From IMG/VR virus record IMGVR_UViG_2563366799_000004, positions 1 to 30,453 of that record: a DNA stretch of 30,453 nt. One strand, written 5' to 3'. The position numbers were made by a program, and so were the translations under genes. Positions 3,867-24,826 of the stretch are shown here, piece after piece. The notes below the pieces were generated by a model. The model did not search any database. It saw nothing but the letters and a program-made list of their open reading frames with translations, and was not told the DNA's origin. Position 1 is the first letter of the stretch. Each line of letters starts with the position of its first letter. The stretch is from a virus (taxonomy: Duplodnaviria; Heunggongvirae; Uroviricota; Caudoviricetes).

Positions 3867-6220
3867 CCACGGCAACCCGTGGCCGTCGCGCCCCTTCTCC
3901 ACCTCCACCGTATCCGGGTAGCACTGACAATGCTATCCCTTACGCTTATGGCGGGAACAAACCATACCAGCCGATTGGCGTTGATGTAGCGCCGGGGCTG
4001 GATGGTTTCGACTATCTCACGCCGGACGGCACGCGTAAGCATATTGCGTTCAGTGAACTGGTAGCGGAGGACGAAAAGCCGGAACGCAGTAAGCTGCTGC
4101 GTCGCCGTCTGGCTTCTCTTCCGCAATATGTCCGCCGCCACTTTGCAGCGAAGCTTGATGCGCTGGATGTGAAAGACCGCAAAGCGGCAGATCACTGGCT
4201 GCTTAACACCTTTGAGCGCCACGTATTAACGCGTATTGATAGCGTGAACAGTGTTTACCAGCCTGATACTGTGATGCCCGGCATTCTGCTGCCAATTCGC
4301 GATCAGCTTTTCCGTATGCTCTGGGCAGGGAAAAAAGAGTTAAAAAGACTGGCTTATACGCTTGCCGATATCTTTACGAGCGAGTTTATACGCGAGTCCG
4401 ATCACCAGTTGGTGCGCACCGGCGATCCTGAGTTCGCGGCGCTTTCTGGCTATGGCCGTATTGCATCGCTGGCAGTGCATCTGAAAACGCCGATCCCCGG
4501 TTGGACAGCTTATTGCAATGAAGAACTTGAAGCGGAGGACGCGTTACGCGCAGTTCTCCGTCTTGAGTCACCGCAGTGGTGGTTAAACCGCCTGCGCCGT
4601 ATCCATGCCCGGTGGCGTGAGCATTTGATGATCGCAGCGGGATACGTCCAGAAAAAATCCTCCCCATACAGTAGCGCCCCGTGCCTTACGGAATGGCTGG
4701 CCCAGAAAAAAGCTAACCGTGAATACCTCAAGGCTATGGAACTGGAAGACCAGGACACGGGCGAGCGCATTTCGCTGATCGATAAAGTCGCCGGCAGTGT
4801 TGCCAATCCGGCCAACCGTCGCCGCGAACTCATGACGAGAATGCGCGGATTTGAAGATCTGGCGAAGCTGGAAGGGCTGGCCGGTGACTTCTACACGCTG
4901 ACAGCGCCTTCCCGCTATCACGCTATGCAGCATAACGGGCGCCGTAATAACAAATACTGTGGCGCGTCGCCGCGTGAGACACAGCAATATCTTTGCAAAG
5001 TCTGGGCGAGAACCCGCGCCGCATGGAAGAGAAAAGGGATCCGCGTCTTTGGTTTTCGCGTGGTCGAACCGCACCACGATGCAACGCCACACTGGCATTT
5101 ACTTCTTTTTATGCGCCCGGAATGCGTCGAGCAGGCGCGCGAAATCTTCCGTAAATATGCCCTGAAAGAAGACGGCAACGAACCGGGAGCGCAGGAAAAC
5201 CGCTTTCAGGTTGTGCCGATCGACGATGCCCACGGCAGCGCAACCGGCTACATAGCGAAATACATTTCGAAGAATATCGACGGCTTCGCGCTGGATGGTG
5301 AGAAAGACGACGAAACCGGGGAAGACCTGAAAGAAATGTCACTCCGCGTTAGCGCGTGGGCATCGCGCTGGGCTATTCGTCAGTTTCAGCAGATCGGCGG
5401 TGCGCCGGTCACGGTATATCGCGAACTTCGCCGCCTGGGCGATCGCGAACTGGTGTTACACCCTGAACTGGAAACCGCCCGGCAGGCCGCTAACGGTGGC
5501 GAATGGGATAACTACGTATTAGCCCAGGGTGGCCCATTGGTTGAGCGCGATAAGCTGCGCATCCGTCTGAATTATGAAACCACTGAAAACGGCAACGCCT
5601 ACGGCGATAACGTCCAGCGAATCACAGGTATTTACTGCCCTATTACGGGCAATGACTCTTTGATCTTCACCCGTACCACTCAATACAAAATCGTGCCGAA
5701 GCGCCAGAGCGCTGACGGTGTGGCCGTTGACGTTGGTTTTTCAGGCGGCAGCGCCGCCCCTCGGAGTTCTGTCAATAACTGTACGCGGGATCCCGCGGCA
5801 GGTGCTGACGGTGTTGAACATGCCGATCACGAAGTGGGCGAGACGGTGAATTTTGATGCGCTTTCACGGCAGGAAAAGCGAGAACTGGCACAGAGGCTAA
5901 GTGACGATGTGCGAAGTAAGCGGAAAAAACGGCCACCGGAACGGGAAGACGGGGCCGGGATATCCGTGAAAGAGCAGCAGATCAGTGAACTGCTGGCGCT
6001 GCGTGGGATTGATGCCAGCGTCGGAATGGTCAGATCGATGATGGCCGGTGCGTCAGTGGCGTGCGGCGATCTTGTTATGACAGTGCAGGATGGGCGGCTG
6101 GTATCGCGCAACCGCGCCGCGTCGGGGCTGGATAAGCTGCCGTCGCAGGTGATGGCGGCGAAGCAACAGACAAATAGTCTTATTAACCGAATGAAAAAAG
6201 CCTTTAACGGTGCGTCATAA
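3863..6220 (+). CDS. A: Replication initiation endonuclease, P2 gpA-like (rolling-circle)
   Basis: 785 aa; contains the conserved active-site tyrosine region GYIAKYISKNIDGF typical of P2 A. Confidence 0.9.
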   Translation: MTTATRGRRAPSPPPPYPGSTDNAIPYAYGGNKPYQPIGVDVAPGLDGFDYLTPDGTRKHIAFSELVAEDEKPERSKLLRRRLASLPQYVRRHFAAKLDALDVKDRKAADHWLLNTFERHVLTRIDSVNSVYQPDTVMPGILLPIRDQLFRMLWAGKKELKRLAYTLADIFTSEFIRESDHQLVRTGDPEFAALSGYGRIASLAVHLKTPIPGWTAYCNEELEAEDALRAVLRLESPQWWLNRLRRIHARWREHLMIAAGYVQKKSSPYSSAPCLTEWLAQKKANREYLKAMELEDQDTGERISLIDKVAGSVANPANRRRELMTRMRGFEDLAKLEGLAGDFYTLTAPSRYHAMQHNGRRNNKYCGASPRETQQYLCKVWARTRAAWKRKGIRVFGFRVVEPHHDATPHWHLLLFMRPECVEQAREIFRKYALKEDGNEPGAQENRFQVVPIDDAHGSATGYIAKYISKNIDGFALDGEKDDETGEDLKEMSLRVSAWASRWAIRQFQQIGGAPVTVYRELRRLGDRELVLHPELETARQAANGGEWDNYVLAQGGPLVERDKLRIRLNYETTENGNAYGDNVQRITGIYCPITGNDSLIFTRTTQYKIVPKRQSADGVAVDVGFSGGSAAPRSSVNNCTRDPAAGADGVEHADHEVGETVNFDALSRQEKRELAQRLSDDVRSKRKKRPPEREDGAGISVKEQQISELLALRGIDASVGMVRSMMAGASVACGDLVMTVQDGRLVSRNRAASGLDKLPSQVMAAKQQTNSLINRMKKAFNGAS

Positions 6221-16670: not shown

Positions 16671-17300
16671 ATGAATTTAAACGAACTCTATCGCCTTATC
16701 TGCAATCTCGCCCGCATTGGCACCGTGCTGGAAGTGGATACGGAAAAGTATCTTGCACGCGTCGAAACCGGCGAGAACAAAACCGACTGGATCCGCTGGG
16801 CAGTGCCGCGCGCCGGTGAAGCCGTGACGTGGTGGGCGCCGACAGTGGGCGAACAGGTTTATATTTTGTGCCCCTGCGGTGAGATGGAGACGGCATTCAT
16901 TGCCGGAAGCCTTTACAGCGAAGACGCACCGCCGCCAGATGCTGGCGCTACCACCTGCGTGATCCTGCACCCGGATGGCGCCCGTATTTCATATGACCCG
17001 GAGGCCAGCGCGCTGGTTGTCAGCGGGGTAAAAACGGCAAGCGTCACCGCGTCGGAATCCATTACCGCCACCGTGCCGGTGGTAACGGTCAAGGCAGATA
17101 CGCGCGTTACCCTGGACACGCCGGAAGTGGTCTGCACCAACAAGCTGATCACCGCCACGCTGGAAGTGCAAAAGGGCGGGGAAATGAAGGGCAATATTAC
17201 CCATTCAGGCGGATCGCTTTCGTCTAATGGTGTCGTTGTCCATTCTCACAAACATAGCGGCGTCCAGTACGGTGGTAGTAATACAGGTGGCCCGGTATGA
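16671..17300 (+). CDS. V: Baseplate assembly / spike protein V
   Basis: 209 aa; gpV-like N-terminal domain; first gene of the V-W-J-I-H-G block. Confidence 0.85.
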   Translation: MNLNELYRLICNLARIGTVLEVDTEKYLARVETGENKTDWIRWAVPRAGEAVTWWAPTVGEQVYILCPCGEMETAFIAGSLYSEDAPPPDAGATTCVILHPDGARISYDPEASALVVSGVKTASVTASESITATVPVVTVKADTRVTLDTPEVVCTNKLITATLEVQKGGEMKGNITHSGGSLSSNGVVVHSHKHSGVQYGGSNTGGPV

Positions 17301-17659
17301 GTACAGTCCGTTACAGCGGCATGAATGCCAGTTCAGGCCATGCCATCACCGACAACGAGCATATAGCGCAGTCTATCGGCGATATTCTGTTAACGCCGAT
17401 CGGTTCCCGTGTAATGCGCCGCGCTTACGGTTCGCAGCTTTTCAACCTGATAGATCAGCCGGTCGATAACGCCATAACGAAGCTGCGCGTTATGTCTGCC
17501 ATCTACAGCGCCCTGTATTTATGGGAACCGCGGATCTCTCTGACCAGTATCACCCTGAGCGCGCCGGGTGCCGGTCGGCTGGTTGCCACTATCCAGGCCA
17601 ATCGCACCGACAATCAGACGCCATTTAACGCTGATATTACATTGAGGGGCCAGGCATGA
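17297..17659 (+). CDS. W: Baseplate wedge protein W (GPW/gp25 family)
   Basis: 120 aa; overlaps V stop; conserved position. Confidence 0.85.
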   Translation: MSTVRYSGMNASSGHAITDNEHIAQSIGDILLTPIGSRVMRRAYGSQLFNLIDQPVDNAITKLRVMSAIYSALYLWEPRISLTSITLSAPGAGRLVATIQANRTDNQTPFNADITLRGQA

Positions 17660-18567
17660 GCGGCACGATCGATTTATCGCAGCTACCGCCGCCCGTGGTG
17701 GTTGAACCGCTGGACTTCGAAACGCTTTTCGCGCAGCGCAAGGCGGCATTTATTGCGATGTACCCGGAAGACGAGCAGGAAGAGATCGCCCGCACGCTTG
17801 AGCTTGAATCGGAGCCGATCACCATGCTGCTGGAAGAGAATTGCTATCGCGAATTGCTGTTGCGCCAGCGGGTGAATGAAGCAGCCCGCGCGGTGATGCT
17901 GGCTTATTCCACGGATAGCGATCTGGATAATCTGGCGGTCAATTTCAACGTTGAACGTCTGACCATTCAGGAAGAAGACGACAGCGTTACACCGCCAATT
18001 GAAGCCGTGATGGAGTCAGACCCAGATTTACGCACGCGTACCCAGCAGGCTTTTGAAGGTCTGAGCGTGGCCGGGCCAACTGCGGCGTATGAATTTTGGG
18101 GGCGTTCAGCAGACGGGCGCGTAGCTGATATTTCGGCGGTGAGTCCTACGCCTGCCTGCGTCACCATTTCGGTGCTGTCGCGCGAAGGTGACGGAACGGC
18201 CAGCGATGATCTGCTTTCCGTGGTCGCTGCTGCCCTGAACGATGAAGAAGTGCGCCCGGTGGCCGACAGGGTAACGGTGCAGTCTGCGGAGATCGTGCCG
18301 TATCAGATTGATGCAACGCTTTACATCTATCCGGGGCCGGAAGCTGAACCCGTCCGGCAGGCATCGGAACAGCAGTTACAGGCGTATATTGCCGCGCAGA
18401 ATCGCTTAGGGCGCGATATCCGTCTTTCAGCTATCTACGCCGCCCTGCACGTCGAAGGCGTCCAGCGCGTGGAACTGGCGCAGCCTGTTGCGGATATTGT
18501 GCTGAGTGACTACCAGGCATCGCACTGCACCGAATACACCATAACGGTGGGTGGTTACGATGAGTAA
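17656..18567 (+). CDS. J: Baseplate protein J
   Basis: 303 aa; overlaps W stop; gpJ-like. Confidence 0.85.
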   Translation: MSGTIDLSQLPPPVVVEPLDFETLFAQRKAAFIAMYPEDEQEEIARTLELESEPITMLLEENCYRELLLRQRVNEAARAVMLAYSTDSDLDNLAVNFNVERLTIQEEDDSVTPPIEAVMESDPDLRTRTQQAFEGLSVAGPTAAYEFWGRSADGRVADISAVSPTPACVTISVLSREGDGTASDDLLSVVAAALNDEEVRPVADRVTVQSAEIVPYQIDATLYIYPGPEAEPVRQASEQQLQAYIAAQNRLGRDIRLSAIYAALHVEGVQRVELAQPVADIVLSDYQASHCTEYTITVGGYDE

Positions 18568-19174
18568 TGACCTGTTACCACCCAGCGCCAGCCGAATGGA
18601 GCGCGTCGCCGCGCGCGTCTGTGCGTCGTTGGGTGAAGTGCCCGTGCCGCTGCGCCAGTTGTGGAACCCGTGGACGTGTCGGGCTGATCTGTTGCCCTAT
18701 CTGGCGTGGGCCTTCTCCGTTGATCGCTGGGATGAGGCCTGGCCGATAAACACAAAACGAAAGGCGGTGGCCGATGCGTTTTACCTGCATAAGTACAAGG
18801 GTACAACGGGCGCCATGCGCCGGGTTGTGGAGCCGTTCGGCTTCTTCATCCGGGTTAACGAGTGGTGGAACATCGACACCGCACCGGGCACCTTCACGCT
18901 GGATATTGGCGTGGAAGACCAGGGCATTAGTGAAGAAACCTATCAGGAACTTGAACGCCTGATCGCCGATGTGAAGCCGTGCAGCCGTCATATGCTGGGA
19001 ATGTCTCTTCACCTGCAAACAACCGGCGATCTGTATATCGGCGCGGGCAGTTATTCCGGCGATACGCTAACCGTGTACCCGTATTTTCCTGAAACCATAG
19101 CCGTGGGCGGTGATGATTACACCGGGGCGGCAATCCATTTAATTGACACCGTGGAGATCGCAAGTGGCGACTAA
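18560..19174 (+). CDS. I: Baseplate/tail protein I
   Basis: ATG 18560 overlapping J stop (track start 18551 is GTG); gpI-like. Confidence 0.8.
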   Translation: MSNDLLPPSASRMERVAARVCASLGEVPVPLRQLWNPWTCRADLLPYLAWAFSVDRWDEAWPINTKRKAVADAFYLHKYKGTTGAMRRVVEPFGFFIRVNEWWNIDTAPGTFTLDIGVEDQGISEETYQELERLIADVKPCSRHMLGMSLHLQTTGDLYIGAGSYSGDTLTVYPYFPETIAVGGDDYTGAAIHLIDTVEIASGD

Positions 19175-20456
19175 ATATTATGCCGTGCTAACCAATGTGG
19201 GCGCGGCGAAACTGGCAAATGCCACGGCATTGGGTGCGCAGGTTGAAATCACCCAGATGGCTGTAGGCGATGGTAACGGCGTGTTGCCGACGCCGAACCC
19301 GGCACAAACGGCGCTGGTTCATGAGCTGCGCCGCAAGCCGCTTAATAGTCTGAGCATTGACCCGAATAACGCCAACCAGATTATTGCCGAGCAGGTGATA
19401 CCTGAAGACGAGGGCGGGTGGTGGATCCGTGAAATCGGTTTATTCGATAAAGACGGCGATATGATTGCCGTAGCCAACTGTGCGGAAACGTATAAGCCGC
19501 AGTTACAGGAGGGAAGCGGGCGCGTACAGGTTGTACGCATGATCCTGATTGTCAGCAGCACCGCTGCCGTAACGCTGAAAATTGACCCTTCGGTAGTTCT
19601 GGCAACCCGACAGTATGTTGATGATCAGATCATCCAGGTGAAAAGCTATGTTGATCAGAAAATGGCAGCGCATGTAGCTGCGGCTGATCCGCATAAACAA
19701 TACGCACCAAAAGAAAGTCCCGCTCTTACTGGCAGGCCGACTGCGCCAACGGCGGAAGGCAAAGATAGTTCTACTCAAATTGCAAATACAGCTTTCGTTC
19801 AGGCTGCTATTGCTGCTTTGGTTGGCTCTTCGCCTGAAGCGCTGGATACGCTGAATGAACTTGCTGCGGCTTTGGGTAATGATCCTAACTTTGCTACCAC
19901 CGTAACAAATTCACTCGCTGGAAAGATGGATAAATCGGCAAATGGTTCAGACATAGAAAACGTTTCTGTTTTTCTACAAAACCTTCGTTTGGGAGCAGGC
20001 GCACCAGCTATCGGTATTCCGTTCTTCTGGCCGTCCTCGGCGATGCCCAATACGGTAATGACTGAATGGGCTGATATGGTGTTTCTGAAGTTCAACGGAG
20101 CCACATTCTCAGCGTCGAATTATCCAAAACTCGCTCTGGTGTTTCCTGCATTAACACTGCCTGAATCACGGGGTGAATTTCTTCGTATCTGGGATGACGG
20201 GCGCGGAGTTGATGCAGGCCGCGGCCTGTTAAGCGCTCAGGGTTATGCCTATCAAAGCCACTCGCACCGATTGCTCATGAGCGCAGGTAGCGCAGGGAGC
20301 GGCAATGTTATTGGTATTGATGGTAGTTTAAATGGAACGCTCACTTACAACATTAACCAACCAGGCGGCGGGCAAATTCAGGCGATTGAAAATGCAGGCG
20401 GCACCGAAACACGCCCACGTAACATTGCATTCAACTTTTTAGTAAGGGCTAAATAA
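19164..20456 (+). CDS. H: Tail fibre protein H (short variant, ~430 aa)
   Basis: N-terminus (KYYAVLTNVGAAKLANA...MAVGDGNG) matches the conserved P2 H baseplate-attachment region; start set at GTG 19164 with GGAG SD; C-terminal half divergent. Confidence 0.8.
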   Translation: MATKYYAVLTNVGAAKLANATALGAQVEITQMAVGDGNGVLPTPNPAQTALVHELRRKPLNSLSIDPNNANQIIAEQVIPEDEGGWWIREIGLFDKDGDMIAVANCAETYKPQLQEGSGRVQVVRMILIVSSTAAVTLKIDPSVVLATRQYVDDQIIQVKSYVDQKMAAHVAAADPHKQYAPKESPALTGRPTAPTAEGKDSSTQIANTAFVQAAIAALVGSSPEALDTLNELAAALGNDPNFATTVTNSLAGKMDKSANGSDIENVSVFLQNLRLGAGAPAIGIPFFWPSSAMPNTVMTEWADMVFLKFNGATFSASNYPKLALVFPALTLPESRGEFLRIWDDGRGVDAGRGLLSAQGYAYQSHSHRLLMSAGSAGSGNVIGIDGSLNGTLTYNINQPGGGQIQAIENAGGTETRPRNIAFNFLVRAK

Positions 20457-21049
20457 TGAAACCTGTTTTCGATGAAAATGGACTGGCAACAGAACCGGGT
20501 GAAATCCGGTGCTATTACTACGACGCGGTGACGTTTGAATACATGGGATGGTCTGACGAATATATTAATACTGGCGTAAGTATGCCCGCCTGTTCCACTG
20601 GTATTGATCCTGGCGAAAACATTCCGGGAAGAGTGGCAGTATTTACAGGTAAGGGATGGAGCCATGAAGAAGACCATCGCAATGAGACTGTTTACTCAAT
20701 CGAAAATGGCGCAGCTGTTACAGTGGATTATATCGGTGCCATCAAAGACGGTTATGTCACGATTTCACCGTTAACGCCATACGATAAATGGGATGGTGAG
20801 AAATGGGTGACAGACACTGAGGCACAACACAGTGCCGCAGTAGACGCGGCAGAAGCACAGCGCCAGTCACTGATTGATGCAGCAATGGCTTCCATTAGTC
20901 TGATTCAGCTGAAATTACAGGCCGGGCGGAAACTGACGCAGGCAGAAACAACCCGACTTAACATTGTGCTGGATTACATTGACGCGGTGACGGCAACAGA
21001 TACCAGCACCGCGCCTGATGTCATCTGGCCTGAACTGCCGGAGGCGTAG
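20456..21049 (+). CDS. G: Tail fibre assembly chaperone G (Tfa family)
   Basis: 197 aa; ATG overlaps H stop (TAATG); C-terminus ...DTSTAPDVIWPELPEA is the Tfa signature. Confidence 0.85.
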   Translation: MKPVFDENGLATEPGEIRCYYYDAVTFEYMGWSDEYINTGVSMPACSTGIDPGENIPGRVAVFTGKGWSHEEDHRNETVYSIENGAAVTVDYIGAIKDGYVTISPLTPYDKWDGEKWVTDTEAQHSAAVDAAEAQRQSLIDAAMASISLIQLKLQAGRKLTQAETTRLNIVLDYIDAVTATDTSTAPDVIWPELPEA

Positions 21050-21260
21050 GCCATTCAATATCGGGTGCTGTTGACGTATCAACACGCATCAGCAGCACAC
21101 GGTATTTCTTCCATTGGGTGAGAGTTGAAGTTTCTTCATCAGTTGCGATACCAGCATCAACAGCATCCTGTCGCCAGGATATTTCAGCATCTGCTTTTGC
21201 ACGAAGGGTGGCTTTCATGTTTGCAGCGTCGGATTTTTGTTGTTCTGGCGTTCGCGGTGG
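21021..21260 (-). pseudogene. Truncated tail fibre assembly (Tfa) C-terminal fragment, convergent with G
   Basis: Minus-strand frame ends ...YRVLLMRVDTSTAPDIEWPTPP, the Tfa C-terminal signature; N-terminal half absent; the first ~30 codons of track ORF 21021..21347 read through the repeat element and are not Tfa-like. Confidence 0.65.
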
Positions 21261-21313
21261 TTCATCAACCCCAGCGACCAGAGATAAGAATTCCGGCACG
21301 CATGGCCGGTTAT

Positions 21314-21385
21314 AACCGTGCTGGCCGTGTGTATCGAGTACGATCACTTTTAACGGTGCTGTAGCACGGTCAGTTATGGTGGTGT
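21314..21385 (+). repeat. ~70-bp repeat element, copy B (partner at 14791..14862)
   Basis: AACCGTGCTGGCCGTG(T/C)GTATCGAG... shared with copy A; nested stem ACCGTGCT/AGCACGGT. Confidence 0.7.
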
Positions 21386-21400
21386 ATTACGGAAGACGAA

Positions 21401-21423
21401 GCGGGCAATGGCCCGCTTTTCTT
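21401..21423 (+). terminator. Rho-independent terminator between G and U
   Basis: GCGGGC-caat-GGCCCGC hairpin followed by TTTTCTT on the plus strand; abuts the U stop codon. Confidence 0.6.
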
Positions 21424-21871
21424 ATATCGAAAGGTTGGTTTTCACCAGAGAGAAGAGATCGTCGGTGGTGGTTTCAGCCAGCTTTTCCCGTATGTCCTCG
21501 CTTACCCGTTTCAGGTTGAGCGTGAAATCAATTTTCTTTGCCTTCCCGTCCTTAAAAAACTCCGTCCGGTTTTGCGTGATCTGCTCAATTACATACATGC
21601 CGTAGATCCTGCCCGTGCCTTCTATCAGGGGCCACGGGCGCCCGGAAAAAGCCATAGTTTCCAGCATGACAAGCGACACATCACCGCCGCTTATTTCGGG
21701 GTACAGCGTGCCGCTGAGTACGAACGGTTCTTCATCTGCGCCGATGAACTGATAGCGCGGGGATTTCCCCACGCGATCGTTTTTGACGTGCCGCCAGGAG
21801 TTGGTTTTATTCGCACTCTGGTAAGGTGTGGTTTGCAGTGAAAAGGGGAACATCCCCAGAATCATCATCAT
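21422..21871 (-). CDS. U: Tail protein U
   Basis: 149 aa; immediately downstream of T on the minus strand, as U follows T in P2. Confidence 0.8.
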   Translation of the reverse strand: MMMILGMFPFSLQTTPYQSANKTNSWRHVKNDRVGKSPRYQFIGADEEPFVLSGTLYPEISGGDVSLVMLETMAFSGRPWPLIEGTGRIYGMYVIEQITQNRTEFFKDGKAKKIDFTLNLKRVSEDIREKLAETTTDDLFSLVKTNLSI

Positions 21872-21880
21872 GATATTGCC

Positions 21881-24826
21881 TTAGACGTGATCGGTCAGTT
21901 GGGAGCGCTTGCGCCGGTCGGCCTGTTGCTTCGCTAACGCAAGTTCTTCGCGCACGCGCCTGATAATGGTTTCTTCATCCAGTTTCTGGCCGCTAAAGTC
22001 GAAGTTAAGGTTATATACATCGCCACCCGGAGCAGGCATCAGCGCAGCGACGGAAGCCGCAGACGGAGACGCCGAAACAGGCATCCGTGCGGCGGGCTTC
22101 TCAACCTGCCAAGGCGTAACGGAAGCGATCAGCGATCCGGCCTGCTGCGTCACCCAATCGGTAAGGGATGGTAGCTGGCGCTGCGCCTGCTTAAGCGGTT
22201 CCGAATATCCGCCACGGATCGGGATATAGGGCTGCTTATTCTTGAAGACAATTTCGCCGGGGCCGTCTTTCTTCTCCGTGGTATTGGTGGCGATCTTGTC
22301 CAGGCTGTTGCTCATCTTCGGCACGATGTTGGCCGGGCCTTTGAGCGAGTTAATTAAGCTTTCCTGCTTTTTCTGCTGGTCAATGGCCTGCTGTTGCTTC
22401 TGGTTGGTTTTCTTCTGCTGATCGTCTTTCGGCGACCAGTTCCAACCCTTTTTAACCATTTTCTTTTGCTGCGGATCCCACTCCCAGACAACAGGGTCTT
22501 TGTGCATACTTTCCGCAGCTTGCTGCGCTGCTTTTGTTGCGTCGGGGATGGCGCCGAGTTTCTCAAGTATCCATCCAATCCCGTTAGCGACGGCTTGAAT
22601 AGGTAGCGTCAGCGCGCTAATTGCGGCCCCTACAACCTTGCCGAACGTTTCCCCGGCACTGGTGCAGGATGCCAGCGCTTCACTGGAAAACTGGATCGGT
22701 TCCAGCAGTTTGGTAAACCATTCCCAGACCCCACTGATCGCGTTGCCGATACTGTCAAAAATCGGGGCCAGTGGTGCAAATACGGCGTTAAATGCCTGCG
22801 TGATTGGTTGAAGGCCAGTCATCAGGCCGGTAAAGAAGCCGCTGAAAAACGCCTGTATGGGTTGCCAGAATTTAATGACGGCCACTGCTGCCGCAGCAAA
22901 GAGCGCAATCAGCCCCCAGACGGGCGCAGAAATACCAGCCAGTAGAGTAATAAGCGGGCCGAATACCATGCGACCGGCGCTTAATAATGCCTGCATAGGC
23001 GAGCCAGCAAGCCACTGGAACGCACCACCAAGGCGCATTACTCCGCCAGTCAGCCGCGCTATTCCTCCTTCCCCGGCCAGCGTGGTGAAGCTGAGGCGAA
23101 CAAGTGCCATCGGGCCCAGCACTGCGCCGATGGACAGCATCAGGCCACCCACGACAACCAGCAACGCGCCTATGGCTGCGGTGACTTTCATGATTGAACC
23201 AACCAGCGCCGGGTTTGCCTCAACCCAACGCCGGACGCTGCCAACCACCTTACTGACGGTAAGCATGATATCCATCAGCGGTTCGCGGAGCGTTTCCCCT
23301 GCTGAACTGAATGCGTTAACCGCGCCGGTTTTGGTCAGTTGCCACTGAGCAGAAAGGGAGTCTTTATTGATATCGGATTCCCGATTCATGGAACCTTTAG
23401 CGGCAGCACCCTGCGTCAGTTCGATCTGGCGCCGAAGTTCGGGCAGGTTGTTCGCAAGTTTCTGTGCATCATCCCCGAACTCTTTACCGAAAATCTGGGT
23501 AAGGTTGGCTACCTGCTTATCTGGTGCAAGTTTTTTGGACGCTTCCAGCACTGAAATGATCGTGCCCATCGCGTCCACTGACATGCTTTTCTGGACTTTC
23601 TCAGCATTGACGCCGATCTCATCCAGAGCACCCAAAAATTTATCGCTTTGTACTGTGGCGATCGACAGTTCACGCACCATTGCATTGGTGGCGCTGGCTG
23701 CAACTTCGGCAGGTGATCCAAGCGTCAGAAAGGTGGAGCCCAGCGCGGCGGCTTGCTTGTAATCCAGTTGGCTGGCAAGCCCGCCAACGCGCTGGAGCAC
23801 GTCGATAATATCGGAGCCTTTCGACTTCGCGTTATCGTCCAGGTAGTTTATGGCGTCGCCCAACTGTTCAATATTCTGGGTAGGGATTTTATACAGCCCG
23901 GCAATCTTACCGAGACTTTCAGAAAGCTGATCGGCGGGCAGTTCAAAGGCTACCGAAGCCTTTGCCGCCATGCTGGCAAAAGCCAGCAGATCGGCTTTTT
24001 GCTTTTGCCACGGATCATTGCTGTTTGCGACGCCCATACGCGCGCCACCTTCGACCAGTGCGGCATAGTCAACAGCACCGTTTGCCATTGGCAGCTTTTC
24101 GCTGGCATCCATGATCGCCCGCTGCATTTCTTCATATTGCGGGGTGCGGTTGCCGCTGTCGTCACGCAAGCCGTTTACCTGTTTGGCTACGCCCTTCATT
24201 GCGTCTTCAAGGCTGCTGTAGGATTTAACCGCAGCGGCGACAGGTGCTAGGGTTGCCGCCCCTACTGCGGCGGTTTTCATCCCCCCGCTCATCATCTTTT
24301 CGCCGGTTTCTTTGGCGCGGCTGTAACGGGCCTGCGCCTGGTTAACAGCGTCAAGCCGTCGCTGCTGTTCGGCAAGCTGGCGGTTGTATTGCGCGGTGCG
24401 CTGGTTGATCTGTTCCGTCGCCCGGCTGGCGCTGCTGATCGCAATGCCTTCGCTGTAGAAGCTGGCCCGCAACTGGTTAAGCTGTGTCTGCTCGCCTTTC
24501 TGCTGCTGGGTTAACTGGCGAATGGCTGCACGTTGCTGATTGAGGGCGGCAACCTGTTCGGCGCTGCGCTGGCGTAACGGGCCATAGGCCGCCGCCATTT
24601 GCCGGGCCTGTTCTTTCGCCTGGGCCAGTTGTTCGGTGGTTTTTTTATTGGCTGCGGTGAGGCGGTCAAAGCTGGTTGCCTGACGCTCAAGCCCTTTAAT
24701 GCTGGTTTTAGTCTGGTTGATTTGAGACGCCAACGCGGCGGCACTCTGGCGCGCCGCGTTGACAGGGCGGGACATATTATTCAGGGCGCTGAATGCCACC
24801 CTGATATTTAAATTGCGGTCTGCCAT
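21881..24826 (-). CDS. T: Tail tape measure protein T
   Basis: 981 aa; Ala/Gln-rich coiled-coil N-terminal part, Gly/Ala-rich hydrophobic central segments; follows E/E'. Confidence 0.9.
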   Translation of the reverse strand: MADRNLNIRVAFSALNNMSRPVNAARQSAAALASQINQTKTSIKGLERQATSFDRLTAANKKTTEQLAQAKEQARQMAAAYGPLRQRSAEQVAALNQQRAAIRQLTQQQKGEQTQLNQLRASFYSEGIAISSASRATEQINQRTAQYNRQLAEQQRRLDAVNQAQARYSRAKETGEKMMSGGMKTAAVGAATLAPVAAAVKSYSSLEDAMKGVAKQVNGLRDDSGNRTPQYEEMQRAIMDASEKLPMANGAVDYAALVEGGARMGVANSNDPWQKQKADLLAFASMAAKASVAFELPADQLSESLGKIAGLYKIPTQNIEQLGDAINYLDDNAKSKGSDIIDVLQRVGGLASQLDYKQAAALGSTFLTLGSPAEVAASATNAMVRELSIATVQSDKFLGALDEIGVNAEKVQKSMSVDAMGTIISVLEASKKLAPDKQVANLTQIFGKEFGDDAQKLANNLPELRRQIELTQGAAAKGSMNRESDINKDSLSAQWQLTKTGAVNAFSSAGETLREPLMDIMLTVSKVVGSVRRWVEANPALVGSIMKVTAAIGALLVVVGGLMLSIGAVLGPMALVRLSFTTLAGEGGIARLTGGVMRLGGAFQWLAGSPMQALLSAGRMVFGPLITLLAGISAPVWGLIALFAAAAVAVIKFWQPIQAFFSGFFTGLMTGLQPITQAFNAVFAPLAPIFDSIGNAISGVWEWFTKLLEPIQFSSEALASCTSAGETFGKVVGAAISALTLPIQAVANGIGWILEKLGAIPDATKAAQQAAESMHKDPVVWEWDPQQKKMVKKGWNWSPKDDQQKKTNQKQQQAIDQQKKQESLINSLKGPANIVPKMSNSLDKIATNTTEKKDGPGEIVFKNKQPYIPIRGGYSEPLKQAQRQLPSLTDWVTQQAGSLIASVTPWQVEKPAARMPVSASPSAASVAALMPAPGGDVYNLNFDFSGQKLDEETIIRRVREELALAKQQADRRKRSQLTDHV

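Follow-up and report, generated by a model that had tools for sequence, protein, structure and literature searches.

The closest described counterparts of the locus studied here are the G segment of Mu with its invertase Gin, the C segment of P1 with Cin, and the P segment of e14 with Pin. In these systems a constant 5' part of the tail-fibre gene carries a crossover site within the gene, and it is followed by two convergent sets of fibre tip and tail fibre assembly (Tfa) gene, a second crossover site, and an invertase of ~190 aa. The sites share an AAACC-NN-GGTTT core, and in gin, cin, and hin a Fis-dependent recombinational enhancer sits in the 5' part of the gene. In other lineages, the opposite-strand fibre and Tfa homologues beside stf-tfa of phage lambda (orf-314/orf-194) and the tfa pseudogenes of the K-12 cryptic prophages are interpreted as leftovers of earlier invertible segments. 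Among P2-like phages, intact segments are carried by Escherichia phage 500465-2 (Gemsvirus), pro483, and prophages of E. coli 1332KP, 730V1, and EPEC E2348/69; experiments have demonstrated that such segments do invert in P2-like prophages of E. coli, including those of EPEC E2348/69 (PMC4272514). Tfa proteins are described, in the part of PMC9608196 that cites work on Mu Tfa, as having a variable N-terminal beta-sandwich that binds the fibre and conserved C-terminal helices that trimerise.

The DNA analysed here (the window: 30,453 nucleotides, IMG/VR record IMGVR_UViG_2563366799_000004) is a P2-like (Peduoviridae-type) prophage of E. coli, and over its first 8 kb it shares 96-98% identity with prophages of strains EC09 and 730V1. 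Window and intact P2-like segments have a common order, V W J I H G facing G' H', then the invertase facing gpU T, and the sister prophages 1332KP and 730V1 share the Mu/P1/e14 architecture, including the core of the crossover sites. In contrast to Mu, P1, and e14, the locus in the window is dead: it holds one site with an imperfect right half, 46 nt of an invertase gene, no alternative tip, and a second Tfa gene without its N-domain. We regard it as highly probable that this feature is the non-functional scar of a Gin/Pin-type invertible host-range segment. As such it is an ordinary, already known kind of prophage decay that alters no open question, but it offers a clean, base-resolved case among independent decays of the host-range switch in one P2-like prophage lineage. 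The features are collected in Table 1.

Table 1. Features of the decayed host-range locus and its surroundings, in window coordinates.
Feature	Coordinates	Strand	Remarks
V, W, J, I, H, G	16671-21049	+	facing the minus-strand tail operon
Tail-fibre gene H	19143..20456	+	437-aa ORF, TTG start
Surviving Gin/Cin/Pin-type crossover site	19972..19997	+	inside H; TTCTACAAAACC-TT-CGTTTGGGAGCA
Variable (host-range) 3' part of H	19986..20456	+	at present fused in frame to the constant part
G, active tail-fibre assembly chaperone	20456..21049	+	197 aa, intact; Caudo_TAP E = 1.2e-26
Tail-to-tail overlap of the two Tfa 3' ends	21021..21049		29 bp; remnant stop 21021-21023 inside G
Truncated second Tfa gene (G' remnant)	21021..21269	-	C-terminal 82 codons and stop
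Minus-strand ORF	21021-21347	-	108 aa, C-terminal ...RVDTSTAPDIEWPTPPAVQAR
Deletion/recombination junction	21269..21272		CCCC run; left, Tfa'; right, invertase 3' end
DNA invertase 3' remnant	21270..21315	+	third base of a Phe codon, 14 codons (PATRDKNSGTHGRL), stop
Spurious 5' extension of the minus-strand ORF	21270..21347	-	residues 1-26, antisense to invertase remnant and downstream spacer
Intrinsic terminator	21398..21427	+	stem GAAGCGGGC/GCCCGCTTT, then T-run
gpU tail gene	21422..21871	-	Pfam Phage_P2_GpU, E = 4.7e-39
Tape measure	21881-24826	-	in the tail operon
Tail operon sheath-tube-E-T-U		-	convergent with the V-G block

The best comparator is the prophage of E. coli 1332KP, which is 99.87% identical to window positions 17000-19999 and 99.4% identical to positions 21270-22377. 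Its locus runs from a variable H tip through G (197 aa), G' (146 aa), H' (99 aa, Gp53-like_C), and a second site to an intact invertase of 193 aa that has Resolvase and HTH_7 domains and matches Mu Gin (PDB 3UJ3) with E = 1.6e-85; the crossover sites flanking the segment are AAACCTTGGTTTGGGAG and, inverted, AAACGTTGGTTTGGGAG. E. coli 730V1 has the same backbone with the whole inter-site segment flipped relative to 1332KP and, since the two prophages are in opposite orientations, both switch states occur in nature. Paired inverted sites are also present in EC09 and in the relatives with handles L001 and L003. The backbone shared by 1332KP, 730V1, and the window is 96-99.9% identical, whereas the G/G' alleles differ. 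Relative to 1332KP, the window lacks the interval from ~4462 to 5616 in 1332KP coordinates, roughly 1155 bp (~1.15 kb): G' has lost its 64 N-terminal codons and the invertase ~179 codons, and both H' and the right-hand crossover site are gone. A sequence-only reading of the window had taken the convergent Tfa fragment to be the footprint of a lost Gin/Cin/Pin-type invertible segment, and had looked to relatives retaining the full switch for comparison; 1332KP and 730V1, which hold the full set on the same backbone and between them display both orientations, bear this out.

The left side of the locus is the tail-fibre gene itself, which consists of a constant N-terminal part and a variable receptor-binding tip. 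The former contains the Pfam Phage_tail_fib N-terminal domain (E = 3.3e-65), and the NCBI gene call for H in the sister assembly L012 is 430 aa. At the DNA level, H is 99.87% identical to its 1332KP counterpart up to position 19999 and divergent beyond, and its variable part is 45% identical in protein sequence to the H' tip of 730V1. The G protein, matched exactly, is found in a 3975-sequence cluster under the name tail fiber assembly protein. The conserved right-hand flank of the variable locus is gpU.

That a Tfa-type fragment lies on the minus strand is real and far beyond chance. The 108-aa ORF matches Pfam PF02413 (Caudo_TAP) with E = 3e-27, over profile positions 53-130 of 131 only, and it matches residues 107-174 of the 175-residue Mu Tfa protein U (PDB 5YVQ_B; E = 7.8e-9), so that the similarity to Tfa proteins expected from the letters alone is found at the C-terminus. 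The remnant keeps only the conserved alpha-helical C-terminal domain of the family; the N-terminal fibre-binding domain (64 codons), which chaperone specificity requires, is gone. Its 249 nt show no difference from the sequence for residues 65-146 of the full-length 146-aa Tfa' of E. coli 21AR0133, in whose prophage the complete gene is on the minus strand and window positions 20415-21275 are matched at 96.3%. Although the fragment had been recognised correctly, its size and end had not: it comprises 82 codons reaching position 21269, rather than ~70 residues reaching 21260. The 29-bp overlap with the end of G (stop codon at 21047-21049), on the other hand, was described exactly. This overlap is annotated in all of the relatives compared, i.e., phages 500465-2, SfIV, and pro483 and six E. 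coli strains (21AR0133, EC09, 730V1, ECONIH5, 1332KP, and CX12), and a tail-to-tail overlap of 29 bp is the canonical arrangement of invertible segments.

The overlap lies within a block of ~300 bp (20768-21083) that encodes both Tfa C-terminal domains in tail-to-tail arrangement and that phages of Escherichia, Klebsiella, Salmonella, Citrobacter, and Shigella share at 91-95% identity. Its left edge, 20768, is the border between the N- and C-domains of G and the exact start of many matches, and the metagenome contig L011 also diverges there. The block looks like a shared recombination module for exchanging chaperone N-domains.

Upstream of its Tfa residues, the minus-strand ORF is not Tfa at all. 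Residues 1-26 have no Tfa homology, and the 108-aa ORF, like its 118-aa form in sister strains, is a chimeric pseudogene. In the sister assemblies an ATG ten codons further upstream opens an uninterrupted ORF of 118 aa, which gene callers name 'tail fiber assembly protein' (WP_077767400.1), whereas the window has ATA at that place. This single SNP (21375-21377; ATG in GCA_043431835.1 and relatives) shortens the called ORF from 118 to 108 aa, and it may be the sole mismatch between the window and L012 over 16.4 kb. The feature is of value mainly as a neat case of switch loss and for the correction of this annotation: the RefSeq-type call WP_077767400.1 (118 aa) describes a chimeric pseudogene and not a chaperone.

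The 108-aa ORF is probably unexpressed. Neither the GTG at 21347 nor the ATG used by the sisters is preceded by a promoter-like site or a Shine-Dalgarno sequence, and the hairpin at 21398-21419, a good intrinsic terminator on the plus strand, also folds on the minus strand after gpU, so that the ORF sits behind it. The terminator once belonged to the invertase gene; today it stops the H-G transcript, which crosses the G' remnant in the antisense direction. Very little weight can be given to the idea that the truncated Tfa' is a functional C-terminal trimerisation-domain protein, made by read-through from the gpU operon, that modulates or poisons the G trimer or fibre assembly. It is true that the reading frame is open and undecayed, that the part kept is the conserved oligomerisation domain, and that the ATG-initiated 118-aa ORF of the sisters is annotated as a protein by RefSeq; but, besides the lack of expression signals and the intervening hairpin, the first 26-36 residues are antisense invertase and spacer with homology to nothing, the window has ATA in place of the ATG of the sisters, the junction is rare in databases, and relatives drop the region freely at many breakpoints, which argues against selection. 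The remnant is without stop codons or frameshifts and matches its intact homologue at every nucleotide, and sister copies reach 99.9% identity or more. Such a lack of decay is expected for a recent event and yet may be compatible with a retained function. We attribute the perfect preservation to recency, because the junction is rare and its copies are at least 99.9% identical.

The right side of the junction is the end of an invertase gene. The invertases of 1332KP and 730V1 end in ...FPATRDKNSGTHGRL followed by the stop codon, the C-terminus of the intact invertase being ...LYKKFPATRDKNSGTHGRL and stop. From position 21270 on, the window is 99.8% identical to the prophages of CX12 and 730V1; positions 21270-21900 correspond, at 99.8% identity to prophages of the window's own lineage, to the end of a 'recombinase family protein' gene and then gpU. 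A derivation of 21270-21315 from something other than an invertase was excluded by this 99.8% identity. Each side of the junction thus has its counterpart in intact relatives with this backbone, in which the components missing from the window keep the two counterparts apart. When the window is aligned three ways with 21AR0133, 730V1, and 1332KP, a microhomology of 2-3 nt falls at the junction, which reads ...TCATCAACCCCAGCGACC in the window, against ...TCATCAACCCAAGC in 21AR0133 and ...AAATTCCCAGCGACC in both 1332KP and 730V1. Inverted or direct repeats that might explain the deletion were sought around the junction, and only short matches at chance level were found.

The junction has next to no chance of being an assembly artefact or a sequencing chimera, a possibility that had been raised for this region and is rejected here. 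Tail-to-tail Tfa modules do recur between the prophages of one genome (median 1, up to 7 places) and may mislead assemblers, but the same join recurs, base for base, in three separate NCBI assemblies of E. coli (at least three in all), which differ by 1-12 SNPs over 16 kb, as well as in two contigs from metagenomes, and is thus replicated in independent genomes and metagenomes. GCA_043431835.1 has 1 mismatch and GCA_052997105.1 has 12 mismatches in 16,357 bp; one third contig, the ENA metagenome contig L011, and the IMG/VR contig L010 have the same junction. All were recovered through IMG/VR and an exact-protein look-up only. Exact-junction scans gave 0 matches in the species-representative genome collection with a 35-mer and a 23-mer and 0 matches in the JGI metagenome collection, and in 5,426 complete E. 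coli genomes no place covered at least 80% of window positions 20900-21900.

The surviving crossover site in H is the sole match in the window to the 19-mer consensus TTCTCCCAAACCAAGGTTT with up to 3 mismatches; 0 are expected from 100 shuffles. Its left half and upstream flank are identical to those of 1332KP and 730V1, and its right half departs from GGTTTGGGAGAA at two positions, one of them the conserved G beside the central dinucleotide. Residual crossover sequences had been envisaged both in H and near 21260. The one in H (19972-19997) was found, but the same 19-mer scan of the whole window (up to 3 mismatches) revealed no second site near 21260. A further scan with AAACCNNGGTTT, allowing up to 1 mismatch, gave three matches, none by the junction and in a number not above chance.

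No serine recombinase is found elsewhere in the window: tblastn with the 730V1 invertase matches only the 3' remnant (~21270-21312), and the 5' ~536 nt of the gene are absent. The recombinational enhancer was probably lost along with that 5' part, judging from its location in related genes. Likewise, tblastn of H' matches H alone, and no alternative tip is present in the window. The absence of the alternative tip and of the N-terminal half of the second Tfa had been correctly noted, whereas the invertase is not wholly absent, as had been thought, its last 14 codons and stop remaining at 21270-21315. The window therefore has neither an adjacent invertase (Resolvase and HTH_7, ~190 aa), nor two inverted sites, nor two sets of tip and Tfa. 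With its single site and with neither an invertase nor an alternative tip, the segment cannot invert, and the fibre set H + G is fixed; the sequence-only reading was right that the fibre is locked in one configuration, and only one, unchanging receptor specificity should be assumed for the prophage.

We picture the route by which the locus reached this state as a deletion. The ancestral locus would have contained, in order, the constant part of H, a crossover site, one tip and chaperone (Hv-A and G-A), a convergent second set (G'-B and Hv'-B), the other site, and an invertase convergent with gpU. The serine invertase would have flipped the inter-site segment, fusing either tip with its chaperone to the constant part of H. 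A single illegitimate join at the 2-3 nt CCC microhomology may then have fused G' at its codon 65 to the last 46 nt of the invertase gene, removing ~1.15 kb: the N-domain of G', the Hv' tip, the right-hand site, and the first ~179 invertase codons, presumably with the enhancer. One imperfect site in H, the intact H and G pair, 82 codons of G', and 46 nt of the invertase would have been left over. We infer that this was a deletion in an ancestor with these very alleles and not an import. The simple-deletion step is undocumented directly because no such ancestor, with this backbone, the exact G/G' alleles, and an intact H' and invertase, was found among complete E. coli genomes.

The same end state could have been reached if the block 19986-21269 (the variable part of H, G, and part of G') had come from another prophage, a route that we consider less likely but a serious alternative. 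The left exchange would have taken place at the crossover site, either through site-specific recombination driven by some invertase present in the cell or through homologous recombination within the conserved site. The right join would have been illegitimate, within the invertase gene's 3' end, and the resident invertible segment and its invertase would have been replaced in one event. Cassette boundaries do coincide with the invertase crossover site: the window follows its closest backbone relative, at 99.87% identity, precisely as far as the central dinucleotide, and the left half-site is that of the backbone whereas the right half-site is cassette-specific. The G' remnant is, moreover, 100% identical in nucleotide sequence to the Tfa' of an unrelated, non-P2 prophage by tonB (21AR0133), the adjacent G having 24 nt differences, and in contig L010 a wholly different baseplate is joined to this cassette at the very same site. 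Mosaic fibre-gene boundaries at invertase sites have a precedent as well, being attributed to Sandmeier in the passage of PMC8986868 that cites that work. In 1332KP the cassette corresponding to 19986-21269 differs, with G ~90% identical and another G' allele, and this divergence fits import equally well. Against import, the cassette alleles of the sister prophages also differ from one another, so that an unsampled ancestor with these alleles and an invertase is just as plausible; the one-step version needs one legitimate and one illegitimate crossover; and L010 is possibly a chimeric metagenome assembly. Deletion and import lead to the same present structure and the same functional conclusion.

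Contig L010 (IMGVR_UViG_3300029878_000071; 6,964 bp) is 99.92% identical to window positions 19979-24818, the G' and invertase remnants, the deletion junction, and P2-type gpU/T included, with three of its four mismatches in the first 30 bp. Upstream of the site, its positions 1-2160 encode an SfV/Mu-like baseplate (baseplate J, DUF2612) and a different N-terminal part of the fibre. The contig may be a chimera of metagenome assembly; otherwise it is a genuine recombinant between prophages at the crossover site. It is decidedly improbable, in our view, that the breakpoint pattern records invertase-catalysed exchange between different prophages and that the orphan site is still active. If L010 is real, Pin-family invertases acting in trans would recombine the orphan sites of locked prophages with the sites of other prophages, and host-range cassettes would be shuffled or chromosome segments inverted.

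Loss of the switch is commonplace in this lineage. EC09 has G' and a fragment of H' with no invertase, ECONIH5 has a 116-aa Tfa' remnant, and MS 57-2 retains just H, G, and 26 nt of the invertase gene. SWYHX138 carries an acyltransferase in this position, CX12 contains pseudogenes and a ClpP-like insertion, and EcPF16 and AR_0128 have H, a Tfa gene, and an orphan invertase. In 1332KP coordinates, the right-hand breakpoint is at 5617 in the window, 5637 in MS 57-2, 5655 in SWYHX138, and 5787 in both EC09 and ECONIH5; because the breakpoints differ, the losses are taken to be independent events.

The interval between G and gpU (equivalent to window positions 21050-21420) is occupied by a ClpP-like protease subunit in CX12 (4957-5508 of L004) and by the acyltransferase in SWYHX138 (2893-3984 of L015). 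Unrelated cargo is thus found between G and gpU, and the locus is therefore a cargo and variability hotspot as well as a host-range switch. A piece of ~51 bp from the spacer after the invertase (window ~21334-21384) is inverted in EC09 (5919-5969) and in ECONIH5 (3879-3930), in both of which the invertase gene is gone; in EC09 it adjoins the right-hand crossover site (5888-5904). The inverted piece may be a trace of a different rearrangement that removed the invertase. EcPF16 and AR_0128 (locus 5465-6046) have an intact invertase and no alternative set of tip and Tfa, and the crossover site in H of AR_0128 is degenerate (AAACCTTCAATTGGGAG). Their orphan invertases could act in trans on other prophages.
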